From: Escherichia phage vB_EcoM_SA35RD
Direction: 5' to 3' (one strand)
Sequence record: OL960577.1
Length of the DNA: 64,000 bases
Numbering within the stretch: the first letter of the stretch is position 1; the number at the start of each line of letters is the position of its first letter. Made by a program: the position numbers and the translations under genes. Below are positions 2,032-30,120 of this stretch, piece by piece. Under the pieces are notes generated by a model. It saw only the letters and a list, made by a program, of their open reading frames with translations, was not told where the DNA came from and did no database searches.

Positions 2032-3600
2032 ATGACTACTATCAAAACTAAAGCTCAGCTCGTAGACAAATGGAAAGAACTGCTGGAAGGTGAAGGCCTG
2101 CCGGAAATCGCTAATAGCAAGCAGGCTATTATCGCTAAAATCTTCGAAAACCAGGAAAAAGATTTCGAAGTATCCCCTGAATATAAAGACGAGAAAATCG
2201 CTCAGGCATTTGGTTCTTTCTTGACCGAAGCTGAAATTGGTGGTGACCACGGTTATAATGCTCAAAACATCGCAGCAGGTCAAACCTCTGGTGCAGTAAC
2301 CCAAATTGGGCCGGCAGTTATGGGTATGGTTCGTCGTGCTATTCCTAATCTGATCGCTTTTGATATTTGTGGTGTTCAGCCTATGAACAGCCCGACCGGT
2401 CAGGTATTTGCTCTCCGTGCAGTATATGGTAAAGACCCTATCGCTGCTGGTGCTAAAGAAGCTTTCCATCCGATGTATGCCCCAGACGCGATGTTCTCTG
2501 GTCAGGGTGCTGCTAAGAAATTCCCAGCTCTGGCTGCTGACACTACTACTGTTGTAGGTGATATCTATACTCACTTCTTCCAAGAAACTGGTACTGTATA
2601 TCTGCAAGCTTCTGCTATCGTAACACTTGATTCTGGTGCAACTGATGCAGCTAAATTAGATGCAGAAGTTAAGAAACAAATGGAAGCTGGTGCACTGGTA
2701 GAAATCGCTGAAGGTATGGCTACTTCTATCGCTGAACTCCAGGAAGGTTTCAACGGTTCTACCGATAACCCATGGAATGAAATGGGCTTCCGTATCGATA
2801 AACAAGTTATCGAAGCTAAATCTCGCCAGCTGAAAGCTGCTTACTCTATCGAATTGGCACAAGACCTCCGTGCAGTACACGGTATGGATGCTGATGCTGA
2901 ACTGAGCGGTATTCTGGCTACAGAAATTATGCTAGAAATCAACCGTGAAGTTGTTGATTGGATTAACTACTCAGCACAGGTTGGTAAATCTGGTATGACC
3001 CTGACTCCGGGTTCTAAAGCTGGTGTATTTGACTTCCAGGACCCGATTGATATCCGTGGTGCTCGTTGGGCCGGTGAAAGCTTTAAATCTCTGTTGTTCC
3101 AGATTGATAAAGAAGCAGTTGAAATTGCTCGTCAAACCGGTCGTGGTGAAGGTAACTTCATTATCGCTTCCCGTAACGTAGTTAACGTACTGGCTTCAGT
3201 TGATACTGGTATTTCTTACGCTGCACAGGGTCTGGCTTCTGGTTTTAATACCGACACTACTAAGTCTGTATTTGCCGGTGTACTTGGTGGTAAATACCGC
3301 GTGTACATCGACCAGTATGCTAAACAGGATTACTTCACCGTTGGTTACAAAGGCGCTAACGAAATGGATGCAGGTATTTACTATGCTCCTTACGTTGCAC
3401 TTACCCCACTGCGTGGTTCCGATCCTAAGAACTTCCAGCCGGTAATGGGCTTTAAAACTCGTTACGGTATCGGTGTTAACCCGTTTGCTGAAAGTTCCCT
3501 GCAGGCTCCAGGTGCTCGCATCCAGTCCGGTATGCCGTCTATCCTGAACAGCCTTGGTAAGAACGCTTACTTCCGCCGTGTATATGTAAAAGGCATCTAA
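2032..3600 (+). CDS. 23: Major capsid protein gp23
   Basis: 522 aa; MTTIKTKAQLVDKWKELLEGEGLPEIANSKQAIIAKIF matches T4 gp23 precursor; followed by strong terminator. Confidence 0.97.
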   Translation: MTTIKTKAQLVDKWKELLEGEGLPEIANSKQAIIAKIFENQEKDFEVSPEYKDEKIAQAFGSFLTEAEIGGDHGYNAQNIAAGQTSGAVTQIGPAVMGMVRRAIPNLIAFDICGVQPMNSPTGQVFALRAVYGKDPIAAGAKEAFHPMYAPDAMFSGQGAAKKFPALAADTTTVVGDIYTHFFQETGTVYLQASAIVTLDSGATDAAKLDAEVKKQMEAGALVEIAEGMATSIAELQEGFNGSTDNPWNEMGFRIDKQVIEAKSRQLKAAYSIELAQDLRAVHGMDADAELSGILATEIMLEINREVVDWINYSAQVGKSGMTLTPGSKAGVFDFQDPIDIRGARWAGESFKSLLFQIDKEAVEIARQTGRGEGNFIIASRNVVNVLASVDTGISYAAQGLASGFNTDTTKSVFAGVLGGKYRVYIDQYAKQDYFTVGYKGANEMDAGIYYAPYVALTPLRGSDPKNFQPVMGFKTRYGIGVNPFAESSLQAPGARIQSGMPSILNSLGKNAYFRRVYVKGI

Positions 3601-3952: not shown

Positions 3953-3982
3953 ATAGTATCACATACCAAATACGTTGTAAAC
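3953..3982 (-). promoter_or_regulatory. T4-type early promoter
   Basis: Minus strand GTTTAC, 18-nt spacer, TACTAT; immediately upstream of the 89-aa ORF. Confidence 0.55.
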
Positions 3983-3988
3983 AATCTT

Positions 3989-3996
3989 TATAAATA
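3989..3996 (+). promoter_or_regulatory. Late promoter (TATAAATA) for gene 24
   Basis: Exact TATAAATA about 28 nt upstream of gp24 ATG. Confidence 0.6.
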
Positions 3997-4023
3997 ATCT
4001 ATATCACATAAGGAAAAAATGCA

Positions 4024-5307
4024 ATGAGTAAAATCCAAAAATTATTGCGTGAATCTACAACGTCTACTAGCAACTCAATTGGTCGCCCAAATCTCGTTGC
4101 TTTGACTCGCGCTACGACTAAATTAATATATTCTGACATTGTAGCAACACAAAGAACTAATCAACCTGTTGCTGCTTTTTATGGTATCAAATATCTTAAC
4201 CCAGATAACGAATTCACATTTAAAACTGGTGCTACTTATGCAGGCGAAGCTGGATATGTAGACCGAGAAAAAATTACTGAGCTCACAGAAGAATCAAAAG
4301 TCACACTAAATAAAGGTGATTTTTTCAAATATAATAATATCGTCTATAAAGTGTTAGAAGATACACCATTTGCAGATATTCAAGAAAGTGATCTAGAATT
4401 AGCTCTTCAGATTGCAGTCGTTCATTTAAAGGTACGGTTATTTTCAGATGCAGCGGTAACAAACAAATTTGAAAGCTCTGATAGCGAAATTTCTGATGCA
4501 AGATTCCAGATTAATAAATGGCAAACTTCAGTCAAATCTCGTAAACTTAAAACTGGCCTAACGGTCGAATTAGCGCAAGATTTAGAAGCGAATGGATTTG
4601 ATGCCCCTAACTTCTTAGAAGATTTGCTTGCTACTGAAATGGCAGATGAAATTAATAAAGATATTCTTCAGTCTTTAATTACTGTATCGAAACGTTATAA
4701 AGTTACTGGAATTACTGACACCGGATTTATTGACTTGAGTTATGCATCAGCTCCAGAAGCAGGTCGTTCATTATATCGAATGGTGTGTGAAATGGTATCA
4801 CACATTCAAAAAGAAACAACTTATACTGCAACGTTTTGTGTAGCCTCAGCCCGTGCAGCTGCTATTCTTGCTGCTTCTGGTTGGTTAAAACATAAGCCAG
4901 AAGATGACAAGTATCTTTCACAAAATGCTTATGGATTCTTGGCAAATGGATTACCTCTTTACTGCGATACCAACAGCCCGTTAGATTATGTTATTGTGGG
5001 TGTTGTAGAAAATCTCGGCGAAAAAGAAATTGTAGGGTCCATCTTTTATGCTCCATACACTGAAGGAATAGATTTAGATGACCCGGAACATGTCGGTGCA
5101 TTTAAAGTTGTAGTTGATCCAGAAAGCTTGCAACCGTCTATCGGATTATTGGTTAGATATGCGTTATCAGCAAATCCTTACACAGTAGCAAAAGATGAAA
5201 AAGAAGCGAGAATAATTGATGGCGGGGACATGGATAAAATGGCAGGACGTTCAGACTTGTCTGTTTTATTAGGTGTTAAACTACCAAAAATTATCATCGA
5301 TGAATAA
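4024..5307 (+). CDS. 24: Capsid vertex protein gp24
   Basis: 427 aa, same length as T4 gp24; gp23-paralog-like sequence; position after gene 23. Confidence 0.9.
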   Translation: MSKIQKLLRESTTSTSNSIGRPNLVALTRATTKLIYSDIVATQRTNQPVAAFYGIKYLNPDNEFTFKTGATYAGEAGYVDREKITELTEESKVTLNKGDFFKYNNIVYKVLEDTPFADIQESDLELALQIAVVHLKVRLFSDAAVTNKFESSDSEISDARFQINKWQTSVKSRKLKTGLTVELAQDLEANGFDAPNFLEDLLATEMADEINKDILQSLITVSKRYKVTGITDTGFIDLSYASAPEAGRSLYRMVCEMVSHIQKETTYTATFCVASARAAAILAASGWLKHKPEDDKYLSQNAYGFLANGLPLYCDTNSPLDYVIVGVVENLGEKEIVGSIFYAPYTEGIDLDDPEHVGAFKVVVDPESLQPSIGLLVRYALSANPYTVAKDEKEARIIDGGDMDKMAGRSDLSVLLGVKLPKIIIDE

Positions 5308-5314
5308 AACAAAA

Positions 5315-5330
5315 GGGACCTTACGGTCCC
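5315..5330. terminator. Bidirectional terminator hairpin between gene 24 (+) and rnlB (-)
   Basis: gggaccTTACggtccc flanked by A-run and T-run (aaaa...ttttttt). Confidence 0.6.
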
Positions 5331-5339
5331 TTTTTTTCG

Positions 5340-6338
5340 TTATGATACTAATTCAATCCATGCAGGACGCAGAACATCTTGCACCATTCGGACTAATTCT
5401 TTCTTAACAAGATTCGGATTATCAGATGATGTTAATACAATACCTTCACGAGAAGTTTCTTCCAGAATATCTTGAACAGTCAATCCCATCACTTTGCCAA
5501 AATCTTTTGGCGTTACAGTCCCAATCTTAGAAATCACATTATTAATACGATTTAATGTAACATAACAAGCTAGAACATCAAGCAAGTTTTTGTCAGTTTC
5601 GGTTAATGGAACCTGAGTTTTAATAGGCTTATCAGACTTTTTCTTTTCACTGAATTTAGAGTTCTTGCACTTAATAGCTACACGAGTACCGTTTGGCAGC
5701 CATTTAGGGAAACAGGGCTTCAGAACATAACCTTCTGCCGTATTATCACCAATAACATTAGCATCAAATACACAATTATTTGCTTCGACAAGGTCTTCTG
5801 ACGCAGTAGCATTATAAGCGGCTAAGACGGAATCAAGGTCATTTGGAATCATGATAAGAGAATCAAATGTTCCACGACCAAGCATTGGTGCCATTTTAAA
5901 ACCGAATTCATTACAGAAATCTTGCATTTCATAATCGGTCAAATACGTATTATCACCACTTTCTGTATTGATAAGGATATCGAACACATAAAAATCTTTT
6001 TCACCGTAGTCAACACCTTTCTGGATTCCACCACCGGCGAATTCACCGAATACTTGATATGATACAGCTCGAGCTGTGTACATGAATTCCTGAACGGCTT
6101 TAATAGCTTTATCATACTTCTTGAGTACGATTTCATAACCATAAAAATCTTCTGCTGGAAGAATAGGGCCTGTGCGCTTGGCGCATGTGACGTTGTCACG
6201 TTCAATTATTAACGAGAAGTTGGTCCCATGGATTTTCTCACGTGCTACCCAAACACCGGTAGTCAAACCATTAGTGTAGAGTTTTTCAATAAACTTAGAG
6301 TTGTAGTGGTTTTCAAGACTGCTGTATTTCTTAAACAT
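5340..6338 (-). CDS. rnlB: RNA ligase 2 (Rnl2)
   Basis: 332 aa; N-terminal nucleotidyltransferase motif EKIHGTN with the ligase lysine; size and position as T4 rnlB. Confidence 0.9.
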
Positions 6339-27832: not shown

Positions 27833-28141
27833 TTACATAAGAAGCAAACGTTCTACCGGAGTACCATCAACCGAAATTACTTTATCAAGGCGGAAAGAAC
27901 GCCACTGACCTAACTTGGTATCGAATGCTCGAACTGATTCACGAGGTTCAGAACGAACTTCTGTTGCCGGATTGTTATTTTCATATTTGACTTCAAGTTC
28001 ATCGCGAGAAGCAAACATAGTACGAACATCACCGTTAGCCTTTTCAAATACAACACAATGAACGCCTACAGACAGAATAGTTTTAATACGTTCACGAAGA
28101 ACCATAGTTTCTTGTTCAGTTAAAATCATATTATTCACCAC
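27833..28141 (-). CDS. Hypothetical protein (102 aa), 31.1-like position
   Basis: ORF overlapping the cd stop; position as T4 31.1. Confidence 0.6.
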   Translation of the reverse strand: MVNNMILTEQETMVLRERIKTILSVGVHCVVFEKANGDVRTMFASRDELEVKYENNNPATEVRSEPRESVRAFDTKLGQWRSFRLDKVISVDGTPVERLLLM

Positions 28142-28712
28142 AAAAGTTTCGGATTTGTTCCCAATTCAGAGAACGAAGATTATTACGAGAGTACTGAATT
28201 ACTTCAATACCGGCTTGTTTTAGAATGTCTGCCCAATTTTCAGGAGATCTGTCATATAATTCTGCGTATACAACCTTTTTAATACCTGACTGCGTAATAG
28301 CTTTAGTGCAATCAGGACATGGAGAAAGCGTCGTATATAACGTAGCACCTTCAATAGAATTACCTTTACGAGCTGCAAACAAAATTGCATTCAGTTCCGC
28401 ATGGATTTCGTTATTGGCAGACCATGCACTATGAGCGGCCCGATGTTCTTTAGCCAAAACAAAATTATCTACCCGTCCAAATGCTGTAGTGCCTTCTTTA
28501 TGTCCAGCAACGATGACTGGGATTGGTTTATTCTTCAACCAACCATTTTCAGATGCATGTTCGCAACAGTTAACGCCACCTGAAGGAGAGCCATTATAAC
28601 CTGTAGAAATAATGCGTCCATCTTTTTCAATGACGGCGCCAACTTTCCATGAACAACATTTTGATTCTTGAGAAATCAGATATGCAATCTGAAGGTATGT
28701 GCTAGCTTTCAT
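28131..28712 (-). CDS. cd: dCMP deaminase
   Basis: 193 aa; zinc-binding motifs HAELNAI and SPCPDC; same size as T4 Cd. Confidence 0.95.
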   Translation of the reverse strand: MKASTYLQIAYLISQESKCCSWKVGAVIEKDGRIISTGYNGSPSGGVNCCEHASENGWLKNKPIPVIVAGHKEGTTAFGRVDNFVLAKEHRAAHSAWSANNEIHAELNAILFAARKGNSIEGATLYTTLSPCPDCTKAITQSGIKKVVYAELYDRSPENWADILKQAGIEVIQYSRNNLRSLNWEQIRNFCGE

Positions 28713-29704
28713 TATTGAACCTTATTAATATAAGTTAACAGCTCTTTAGTTTGTTCCCAACTGATGCACGCATCGGTAACGGAAACGCCATAGGACATAT
28801 TATCAGAAATTTTTTGATTTCCTTCATGTAGGAATGATTCTATCATAATTCCTTTGACCAAATCATTAGCTGCTAAATTTTTACCAATACCAATTTGATT
28901 GCTATAATGCCCATCAGCGTTTGCATGGCTACAATCGACCATTACATAATGATTCAGACCTACTGCCCTTGCTTTGTTAGAAGCTTCTTGAATATCAGAA
29001 GAATGATAGTTCGGGCCGTTGGTCCCGCCACGCAATACGATATGCGTATTCTGATTACCTTCAGCTTCAACAATGCCTACAGTACCATCGACGTCCATAC
29101 CCATATACCGATGAGGCCAGGCGGCACTATACATCGCGTCTGTAGCTACTTTAATAGAACCATTGGTTGCGTTCTTGAAGCCTACGCACATCGGTAGACC
29201 TGAAGCAATTTCACGATGTGTCTGACTTTCAGTCGTACGGGCGCCAATAGCAACCCATGAGAAAATACCAGAAAGATACTTAATCGTGAATGGGTCTAAT
29301 ACTTCAGTTGCTAATGGAAGTCCCATACGTAGAAGTTTACGACACAATGTTCGTGCAACTATAAGACCGTGGTTCATATCAAAACTTCCGTCAAGATACG
29401 GATCATTTACAAGACCTTTCCAACCTACGGTAGTTCGAGGCTTTTCAAAATAAACGCGCATCACTAACAGAACATTAGGAAGACGAGTTTGAAGTTCAGC
29501 CAGACGTTTGCCGTATTCAACAGCAGCAATAGGGTCATGAATTGAACAAGGACCTACAACAATAAGTTTGCGTGGGTCTTCACCGTTCATAATCGAATTA
29601 ACTTGTTCGCGATGAGAAGCCACTTGTGATGCGTAAGCTTCCGACAAAGGAATAATCTCAGCTAGTTCTTTTGGAGAAATAAGTTTTCCGACGACAGGTA
29701 ACAT
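28712..29704 (-). CDS. 3-deoxy-D-arabino-heptulosonate 7-phosphate (DAHP) synthase, class I (AroG/AroF/AroH-like)
   Basis: 330 aa; GPCSIHDP, KPRTTVGWKGL, GARTTESQ, HIVLRGG, ESFLHEGNQ, VTDACISW align with E. coli AroG metal/PEP-binding motifs; stop overlaps cd start (TAATG). Confidence 0.9.
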   Translation of the reverse strand: MLPVVGKLISPKELAEIIPLSEAYASQVASHREQVNSIMNGEDPRKLIVVGPCSIHDPIAAVEYGKRLAELQTRLPNVLLVMRVYFEKPRTTVGWKGLVNDPYLDGSFDMNHGLIVARTLCRKLLRMGLPLATEVLDPFTIKYLSGIFSWVAIGARTTESQTHREIASGLPMCVGFKNATNGSIKVATDAMYSAAWPHRYMGMDVDGTVGIVEAEGNQNTHIVLRGGTNGPNYHSSDIQEASNKARAVGLNHYVMVDCSHANADGHYSNQIGIGKNLAANDLVKGIMIESFLHEGNQKISDNMSYGVSVTDACISWEQTKELLTYINKVQ

Positions 29705-29824
29705 AACAATCCTTAGGAGATATAAACAGATTCTGATTCAACAATACCTTTAACCGGATTAGACAGGCTAAGTTGGTAGTGCTCAGATTTATGACCATTC
29801 TCGATAGTAATGAGATAGCTCTCA

Positions 29825-30061
29825 TTATAGTGTTCCATATACTCGAGTTGCTTCAACAAGACCATCACTGCCTAATTTAAGATTAGTAATTTGGTCGCCA
29901 TCTTTAGGATTAACAATTATGAGAAAAGAACGTGGAGATTCTTGAATAACTCGTAATGTTGCATCCTTGAAACGTTCAGACACTTTATTTATGAGTGCTT
30001 GAGCAAATTCTTTTACTTTAATCTGAAATTCGTGCACTGTAATTGGGTTTTCACTTAGCAT
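29825..30061 (-). CDS. Hypothetical protein (78 aa)
   Basis: ORF with early promoter and SD (GAGGAAAACAGA-ATG). Confidence 0.6.
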   Translation of the reverse strand: MLSENPITVHEFQIKVKEFAQALINKVSERFKDATLRVIQESPRSFLIIVNPKDGDQITNLKLGSDGLVEATRVYGTL

Positions 30062-30090: not shown

Positions 30091-30120
30091 ATAGTATCAC
30101 AACTCTACCATGTTGTAAAC
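30091..30120 (-). promoter_or_regulatory. T4-type early promoter with 9-bp dyad flanking -10
   Basis: GTTTAC, 18 nt, TACTAT; perfect inverted repeat GGTAGAGTT / AACTCTACC around the -10. Confidence 0.55.

Follow-up and report, generated by a model that had tools for sequence, protein, structure and literature searches.

The 64,000-nucleotide (nt) stretch of Escherichia phage vB_EcoM_SA35RD analyzed here (OL960577.1; hereafter the window) belongs to a Mosigvirus, an RB69-like T4-type phage, and carries between cd.2 and cd a gene for 3-deoxy-7-phosphoheptulonate (DAHP) synthase, which we call DAHPS. The encoded protein is a metal-dependent type Iα enzyme of the AroF lineage, predicted from its sequence and a structure model to be catalytically competent, and it belongs to a virus-exclusive clade in which the inhibitor pocket of these enzymes is systematically altered. 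At the locus, an open reading frame (ORF) scan of the window finds one ATG-initiated ORF of 330 residues on the minus strand (Table 1). The order of genes around it is alc, pseT.3–pseT.1, pseT, cd.4, cd.3, cd.2, DAHPS, cd, 31.1, 31 and rIII, with frd, td and nrdAB located ∼7–11 kb upstream of DAHPS on the same strand. Shigella phage Shf125875 encodes an identical protein, PI26_gp195 (100% identity).

Table 1. Features at the cd.2–DAHPS–cd locus, in window coordinates
Feature	Position	Strand	Basis
DAHP synthase (3-deoxy-7-phosphoheptulonate synthase) coding sequence, type Iα, AroF-like, 330 residues	28712..29704	minus	ORF scan, profiles, alignment, AlphaFold2 model
TAATG, DAHPS stop and cd start sharing one base	28710..28714	minus	raw sequence and ORF scan
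Shine-Dalgarno AAGGA, 5 nt 5′ of the DAHPS ATG	29710..29714	minus	read from sequence
cd, dCMP (deoxycytidine monophosphate) deaminase, 193 residues, directly downstream of DAHPS	28131..28712	minus	Pfam dCMP_cyt_deam_1, E 3.6e-26; annotated cd in Shf125875
cd.2 homologue, 78 residues, DUF7320, phrog_1504, upstream neighbor	29825..30061	minus	Pfam and PHROG profiles, comparison with Shf125875
Candidate early promoter TTTACA-N17-TACTAT, TG upstream, 5′ of cd.2	30091..30119	minus	consensus match
Left cassette junction ATAATGAGAGCTA, cd.2 stop and copy of the cd start region	29816..29828	minus	RB69 alignment
Right cassette junction ATAATGAAAGCTA, DAHPS stop and true cd start	28703..28715	minus	RB69 alignment
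ORF of 41 residues, MEHYNESYLITIENGHKSEHYQLSLSNPVKGIVESESVYIS, in the 120-bp spacer at the cassette left end, unannotated in Shf125875; probable remnant of a donor cd.2	29713..29838	minus	phrog_15876, E 1.9e-32
gp31.1 homologue downstream of cd, WYL_2 / Sm-like SH3 domain	27833-28141	minus	profile, E 1.5e-9

Profile searches assign the protein to the DAHP synthases with scores far above the model cutoffs. It matches Pfam DAHP_synth_1 (PF00793) over residues 36–323 (E 5.2e-75; 252.3 bits against a cutoff of 25.5), the NCBIfam aroFGH equivalog TIGR00034 (427.7 bits against 173.2) and the subfamily model PRK12755 (455.1 bits against 343), and it does not reach the cutoffs of the AroG-specific model NF006723 (363 bits against 568) or the AroH-specific model NF009396 (386 bits against 463). 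The closest solved structure by sequence is the Tyr-sensitive Escherichia coli AroF (6agm; E 5e-105), followed by Neisseria meningitidis DAH7PS (NmeDAH7PS) and E. coli AroG. The initial annotation of this locus, which gave no strand, had called a class I DAHP synthase from a 330-residue ORF with hallmark motifs, and every motif that it quoted is present in the translation: GPCSIHDP (residues 51–58), KPRTTVGWKGL (88–98), GARTTESQ (154–161), HIVLRGG (221–227), ESFLHEGNQ (289–297) and VTDACISW (309–316).

To examine the active site, we aligned the protein with AroG, AroF and AroH of E. coli K-12 and inspected 11 residues. The metal ligands C61, H268, E302 and D326 of AroG correspond to C53, H260, E289 and D311 of the phage protein, and the residues that contact phosphoenolpyruvate (PEP) and erythrose-4-phosphate (E4P), AroG R92, K97, R99, T100, R165, K186 and R234, correspond to R83, K88, R90, T91, R156, K177 and R225. 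Thus 11 of the 11 catalytic and substrate residues are kept, and they show zero entropy across the phage clade described below. The alignment upholds the class I assignment, with metal and substrate ligands intact, but corrects one detail of it: the metal-binding histidine, previously placed in HIVLRGG, is H260 within VDCSHAN (the equivalent of AroG H268), and HIVLRGG instead contributes R225, which corresponds to the PEP-binding R234 of AroG.

An AlphaFold2 (AF2) model, built on a 45-sequence alignment, has a predicted local distance difference test (pLDDT) score of 92.4 and a predicted template modeling (pTM) score of 0.91, and Foldseek superimposes it on NmeDAH7PS (4hso) and AroG (1qr7) with a query template modeling score (TMq) of 0.96 and a root-mean-square deviation (rmsd) of 1.4 Å. 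The model is a (β/α)8 barrel that contains the Iα-specific β6a/β6b hairpin (strands at residues 198–203 and 209–214). The Iα N-terminal extension is also present, yet it is 8–9 residues shorter than in AroG and AroF. Compared with the 350 residues of AroG, the 330-residue phage protein has an N terminus that is 8 residues shorter, three small internal deletions and a shorter C terminus, as the initial annotation had noted for both ends. Collectively, the alignments and the model make it very probable that the ORF encodes a functional type Iα DAHP synthase.

Comparison with the characterized enzymes shows both close kinship and consistent departures. The phage protein shares 51% identity over its full length with E. 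coli AroF (6agm/6agl), together with the fold, the Cys/His/Glu/Asp metal site, the KPRT and GARTTES motifs, the β6a/β6b hairpin and the Gly at the Tyr-type specificity position. In contrast to AroF, its N terminus is 9 residues shorter, such that AroF residues 2–10, including N8, are missing; its pocket carries the replacements P151→I, Q152→K, D156→G and S181→P; it has 5- and 3-residue deletions near the C-terminal third in addition to a shorter C terminus; and it is phage encoded with phage codon usage. AroG (1kfl/1qr7) and NmeDAH7PS (4hsn/4hso) are 45–47% identical to it, with a TM score of 0.96, an rmsd of 1.4 Å and identical catalytic residues. Unlike these two enzymes, the phage protein has Gly rather than Ser at the position of AroG 211, harbors the pocket substitutions and lacks equivalents of D6 and D7.

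Protein searches with the window protein revealed a graded series of relatives down to ∼56% identity, all placeable members of which lie on phage-sized or T4-like contigs. Below ∼56% the matches form a plateau of bacterial AroF-like proteins, at 48–55% identity, from many phyla. Neighbor-joining (NJ) analysis of 131 sequences groups all 31 of the phage type in a single clade (bootstrap 58/60), and a scan of 185,579 bacterial and archaeal species, with one genome each, found nothing above 52% identity. The profile search and phylogeny that the initial annotation had proposed as checks hence returned a DAHPS family match and monophyletic phage copies. No specific bacterial donor emerged; the nearest sequences are a diffuse AroF-like set from many phyla.

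Aeromonas phage HJ05 (79 kb) carries a distant DAHP synthase homologue at 4899-6062 (locus coordinates), annotated as hypothetical (387 residues, 38% identity), which is probably an independent acquisition and was excluded from the clade as distant and unrelated. An NJ tree rooted on the HJ05 sequence places the phage clade outside all sampled bacteria, a placement that we regard as uninformative, as long branches may contribute to it and the bacterial sample is biased to top matches. Also excluded was the copy on CAKLQH020000056.1 (“Acinetobacter phage MD-2021a”). That record is a bacterial contig, on which aroF adjoins cobS, cobT and an alpha-ribazole phosphatase gene, and thus some of the DAHPS matches in the phage collection are mislabeled host DNA.

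The most distinctive property of the clade lies in the allosteric site. In AroG the main chain of the inhibitor is bound by Q151 (AroF Q152) and S180 (AroF S181), both described as conserved, and D155 forms a stabilizing salt bridge in the pocket region (PMC9529685). The P150L and D146N substitutions render AroG completely feedback resistant, and S180F, L175D, L179A, F209A/S and V221A also confer resistance; inhibition by Phe is abolished by P150L, S180F and D146N (PMC9529685). Engineered or selected feedback-resistant forms of Corynebacterium glutamicum AroF carry E154S or P155L/I. The N-terminal extension and the β-hairpin together make up the allosteric machinery as well as the Phe site; the segments of the inhibitor pocket in addition contribute the tight-dimer interface and continue directly into the PEP-binding GAR motif (PMC4735112).

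In the window protein, residues I141, K142, G146 and P171 occupy the positions of AroG P150, Q151, D155 and S180. The full I/K/G/P set is found in 29 of the 31 clade members, the two outliers, P0020 and P0022, having I/R/N/P and P/K/G/P; by position, Pro-180 is present in 31/31 and Ile-150, Lys-151 and Gly-155 in 30/31 each. The N terminus is likewise altered throughout: 47–51 residues precede the PCS sequence in 31/31 phage-type proteins, compared with at least 57 in bacteria, and the phage enzymes are without equivalents of AroG residues 2–9, including D6 and D7, and of AroF N8. In contrast, P(V/G)/Q/D/S occupies the four pocket positions in AroF, AroG and AroH of E. coli and in ∼90 bacterial relatives. 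The pocket could be read at 68 loci from bacterial genomes, which comprise 61 PQDS, 6 other P-Q-x-S combinations and 1 PEDS, and the phage I/K/G/P set occurs in none (0/68); all bacterial relatives checked have Ser or Thr at position 180, and nearly all have Gln at 151. The canonical feedback site, as defined by Gln151, Ser180, Pro150, Asp155 and N-terminal residues 6–10, is thus not found in the window protein.

The phage clade resembles the feedback-resistant mutants in being naturally non-wild-type at P150, at S180 and at the inhibitor-contacting Q151. It differs from them, in a comparison made by sequence alone, in that the phage residues are Ile, Lys and Pro rather than Leu or Phe and are combined with the N-terminal truncation and D155G. 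The loss of N-terminal residues together with substitutions at inhibitor-binding and resistance sites predicts a loss or retuning of Tyr, Phe and Trp feedback, and we consider outright insensitivity to these amino acids somewhat more probable than continued sensitivity. The suggestion in the initial annotation that feedback may differ is thereby answered in part, in that the inhibitor pocket is altered systematically across the clade.

The gene is widespread among T4-like phages. By tblastn it is present in 211 phage records, 99 of them at ≥99% identity, and many of these records label it phospho-2-dehydro-3-deoxyheptonate aldolase, aroF, AroG or DAHP synthase. It also matches phrog_5045 (PHROGs v4) from end to end (E 3.2e-182), a family assigned to the category “moron, auxiliary metabolic gene and host takeover.” Surveying related phages at the cd locus, as the initial annotation had advised, shows that the slot between cd.2 and cd holds DAHPS in at least six T4-like genera: Mosigvirus, Kanagawavirus (CIP9 and PEi26, 76–77% identity), Kagamiyamavirus (EcS1), Marfavirus (PWKp18), Winklervirus (X20) and Bragavirus (phiP4-3, 59% identity). 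In T4 the slot is taken by cd.1, and the interval from cd to pseT contains just the small ORFs cd.1–cd.5, in agreement with the earlier description. The cd.2–cd junction is therefore a variable slot, which is empty in RB69, contains cd.1 (112 residues, 3197-3535) in T4 and contains DAHPS in the window. An ORF of ∼112 residues stands beside DAHPS in EcS1 (3983-4318), X20 (3998-4339) and phiP4-3 (3957-4295; all in locus coordinates) and may be a cd.1 homologue.

The initial annotation had also described DAHPS as translationally coupled to cd on the basis of their overlap. The overlap itself is confirmed: the DAHPS TAA (28714..28712) and the cd ATG (28712..28710) form a TAATG with one common base, and an AAGG precedes the cd ATG within the 3′ end of DAHPS. 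However, overlaps of this type are routine in such genomes, as ∼12 of 27 gene junctions overlap in the homologous 13-kb stretch of Shf125875 and 4 of those are of the identical single-base type. Moreover, although the DAHPS stop also overlaps the cd start in the uncultured T4-like contig L014 (57% identity), where the DAHPS–cd pair is located after frd and td, the two genes abut without overlap in CIP9 and PWKp18 and are separated by one or two small ORFs in EcS1, X20 and phiP4-3. The stop/start overlap is therefore not conserved for this gene pair across genera.

Within Mosigvirus, 138 records span the full 2.8-kb query, whereas RB69, JK42 and ECO111 5-P match it in two pieces and lack DAHPS. 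Alignment with RB69 reveals a clean 1,113-bp indel. The stop of RB69 cd.2 overlaps the start of cd, CTATAATGAAAGCTAGC (RB69 locus ∼1290-1320), and in the window the two cassette junctions form a 13-nt direct repeat with one mismatch (ATAATGA[G/A]AGCTA), which is present as a single copy in RB69, JK42 and ECO111 5-P. The left repeat copy also begins a 55-residue out-of-frame ORF (29658..29825) that spans the DAHPS ribosome-binding site and start codon. We considered whether the cassette’s left-end spacer is a duplicate of the cd 5′ end and rejected this, since outside the 13-nt repeat the two show no significant similarity (the score is reached in 49 of 500 shuffles).

The spacer ORF of 41 residues instead matches the cd.2 family (phrog_1504) in its C-terminal half, at positions 44–76, more weakly than it does phrog_15876. 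In local BLOSUM62 alignments, it scores 71, 61 and 60 against cd.2 proteins of Kanagawavirus and Marfavirus, compared with 30 against the window’s own cd.2. By these sequence scores the ORF is probably a remnant of a donor cd.2 carried in with the cassette, and such a foreign remnant suggests a different T4-like genus as the source. Most simply, another T4-like phage would have contributed the 3′ half of its cd.2 plus DAHPS to an RB69-type backbone, at the cd.2–cd junction. DAHPS is thus old among T4-like phages as a group and an accessory cassette within Mosigvirus, so that its earlier portrayal as a long-resident operon member holds at the first level and needs qualifying at the second, where the gene is present or absent together with the foreign cd.2 remnant. 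RB69 manages without the gene, which is therefore dispensable. The cd of RB69 (locus 1307-1816) is annotated with 169 residues, compared with 193 in the window and T4, and is followed by a 77-nt gap before 31.1; the short form may be truncated or frameshifted, or may reflect how the RB69 record is annotated.

The base composition of DAHPS is that of its phage surroundings. Its GC content is 41.3%, and its GC content at third codon positions (GC3) is 29.6%, compared with 37.9 ± 2.5% and 28.5 ± 4.7% in a set of 47 long window ORFs and with 52–53% and 50–57% for E. coli aroF, aroG and aroH. Relative synonymous codon usage (RSCU) correlates at 0.87 with the window ORFs and at 0.26 with the E. coli aro genes. 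These values bear out the phage-like composition and codon usage claimed in the initial annotation, and its view that the gene does not stem from contamination or a chimeric contig is upheld by 138 near-identical Mosigvirus records and five other genera in which DAHPS occupies the cd.2–cd slot. The shared slot, the composition, the monophyly of the clade and the 52% ceiling on bacterial identity mark DAHPS as a phage gene under selection.

Taking the enzyme, its pocket and its setting together, we regard as the probable explanation that DAHPS is an auxiliary metabolic gene of T4-like Enterobacterales phages for a feedback-escaping DAHP synthase, which would sustain entry into the shikimate pathway during infection. 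Early transcription from a promoter 5′ of cd.2 probably covers DAHPS along with cd.2 and cd. The candidate promoter in Table 1 was retained because its position corresponds to the early promoter that the T4 record marks between cd.2 and cd.3, and a sequence scan found no promoter-like or terminator-like site between cd.2, DAHPS and cd. Translation would start from the gene’s own Shine-Dalgarno sequence. The enzyme would then convert PEP and E4P to DAHP, the flux-controlling step at the entry of the pathway, and the host’s remaining shikimate enzymes would take DAHP on to chorismate. If the phage enzyme indeed escapes the Tyr, Phe and Trp feedback that throttles host AroF, AroG and AroH, and if transcription from the phage genome bypasses TyrR and TrpR repression as well, carbon could keep flowing into the pathway however large the pool of aromatic amino acids, and in spite of host shutoff. 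The phage may profit from aromatic amino acids as its protein synthesis surges, from folate made via p-aminobenzoate for the chemistry of td, frd and the hydroxymethylase, or from quinones. As in the initial annotation, such a part in folate or aromatic supply is speculative.

Several observations weigh against this explanation. The searchable literature contains no enzyme assay, expression data or phenotype for any phage copy. RB69 and at least two other Mosigvirus isolates (JK42 and ECO111 5-P) are without the gene, and since T4 and most T4-like genera do not have it either, any benefit must be conditional. The promoter scan of the region is unenriched, with 13 sites found compared with 13.0 expected from shuffles (the terminator scan gave 3 compared with 2.5). 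Within the protein, the regulatory β6a/β6b hairpin is retained in the AF2 model, as are D137 (AroG D146), P138 (AroF P148), L170 (L179), V212 (V221) and the Tyr-type G202 (AroG S211). Finally, the pocket columns of the phage clade have a mean entropy of 0.51, compared with 0.98 for the whole protein (0.88 and 1.22 in the bacterial set). An abandoned site would be expected to drift, and a conserved pocket may still bind something or may be constrained as the tight-dimer interface.

Some of these features would also fit an ordinary Tyr-sensitive AroF-type isozyme, which would provide extra enzyme copies after host shutoff and retain aromatic feedback. AroF is the closest relative by both profile and structure matches, the Ser211/Gly marker position has the Tyr-type Gly, the hairpin is kept, the equivalents of D146, P148 (AroF), L179 and V221 are retained, and the pocket columns are strongly constrained. 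What makes Tyr sensitivity rather unlikely, in our judgment, is the replacement of the residues that hold the inhibitor main chain: Q151 is Lys in 30/31 clade members and Arg in one, and S180 is Pro in 31/31. In addition, the P150 equivalent is Ile in 30/31, the D155 salt-bridge partner is Gly in 30/31, and the N-terminal residues that include AroG D6 and D7 and AroF N8 are missing in 31/31. Single substitutions at several such sites of AroG abolish inhibition (PMC9529685).

The conservation of the pocket also allows for the idea that it has been re-specified, such that a new conserved effector site and the trimmed N terminus sense a nucleotide, a folate or a metabolite derived from shikimate or chorismate in place of Tyr, Phe or Trp, which would couple entry into the pathway to the metabolism of the phage itself. 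F139, T140, I141, K142, G146, I166, P171, S193, Y200 and G202 are near-invariant at 56–77% overall identity, the entropy contrast and the kept hairpin fit such a site, the loss of acidic N-terminal residues combined with the Gln-to-Lys replacement would make the pocket more basic, and the gene lies within the nucleotide-metabolism run frd-td-nrdAB...cd. We nevertheless consider a new effector improbable. The part that these segments play in the tight-dimer interface and their lead into the PEP-binding GAR motif would also account for the conservation (PMC4735112). Gene neighborhood in T4-like phages is, moreover, a weak guide to function.

A further proposal turns on substrates rather than products. 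Cyanophages carry pentose-phosphate auxiliary genes, and by analogy removal of E4P (and PEP) by the phage enzyme might draw the non-oxidative branch of that pathway toward pentose phosphates, for use in deoxynucleoside triphosphate synthesis. The support is circumstantial, consisting of the co-orientation and co-transcription context with cd, the closeness to pseT, nrdAB, td and frd, and the recurrence of the DAHPS–cd pair after frd and td in contig L014. A deregulated PEP sink would be costly, however, and T4, RB69 and most T4-like genera synthesize DNA at an equal rate without the gene; sequence cannot tell such a drain from product supply, and we hold it to be very improbable. An assembly artefact, host contamination or a decaying pseudogene can be dismissed, as we found nothing in its favor, though some “phage” database matches are bacterial contigs, and the identical or near-identical gene occupies the same slot in 138 independent Mosigvirus genomes, with an intact ORF, all catalytic residues, phage codon usage and ≤52% identity to any bacterial genome.

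That phages carry this gene, and that it is an auxiliary metabolic gene for a DAHP synthase, was already known, so that the novelty implied in the initial annotation was overstated. The PHROG 5045 members and GenBank copies (Shf125875 PI26_gp195, PhAPEC2, phiC120 ORF64 and Klebsiella phage KLB31) represent the same gene, and two genome papers refer to it in passing, under the name of a DAHP synthetase domain or of an auxiliary metabolic gene (PMC8022965, PMC11845039). Such passing mentions are all that the searchable literature yielded, with no functional study of the phage gene, and neither these papers nor the database entries analyze the regulatory site, the RB69 indel or the function. New here are the clade-wide regulatory-site signature, not found in the bacterial genomes scanned; the indel relative to RB69, together with the repeat at its junctions; and the foreign cd.2 remnant.

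These points are unlikely to greatly surprise a specialist. The gene is still a clean example of a virulent enterobacterial phage with the flux-controlling enzyme of a host biosynthetic pathway, and a virus-exclusive clade with an inhibitor pocket unlike that of nearly every bacterial relative examined at feedback-relevant positions offers a concrete hypothesis. If the enzyme is naturally feedback resistant and fully active, it would show how a T4-like phage bypasses end-product control by its host, and it would supply a ready-made deregulated DAHP synthase for strains that produce aromatic compounds. The natural RB69-type deletion variants could serve as isogenic-like controls for when the gene pays.

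Two minor observations concern genes at the edges of this analysis. The divergent clade member P0022 (57% identity, pocket P/K/G/P) lies on the metagenomic contigs L015 and L016, the latter from a crustacean metagenome, with no adjoining cd; a 394-residue gene with a faint Zeta_toxin-like match is located upstream of it and a Phage_T4_Y05Q gene nearby. Downstream of cd, the gp31.1 homologue is called “tail fiber protein” in several GenBank records, a label that looks like an annotation error.

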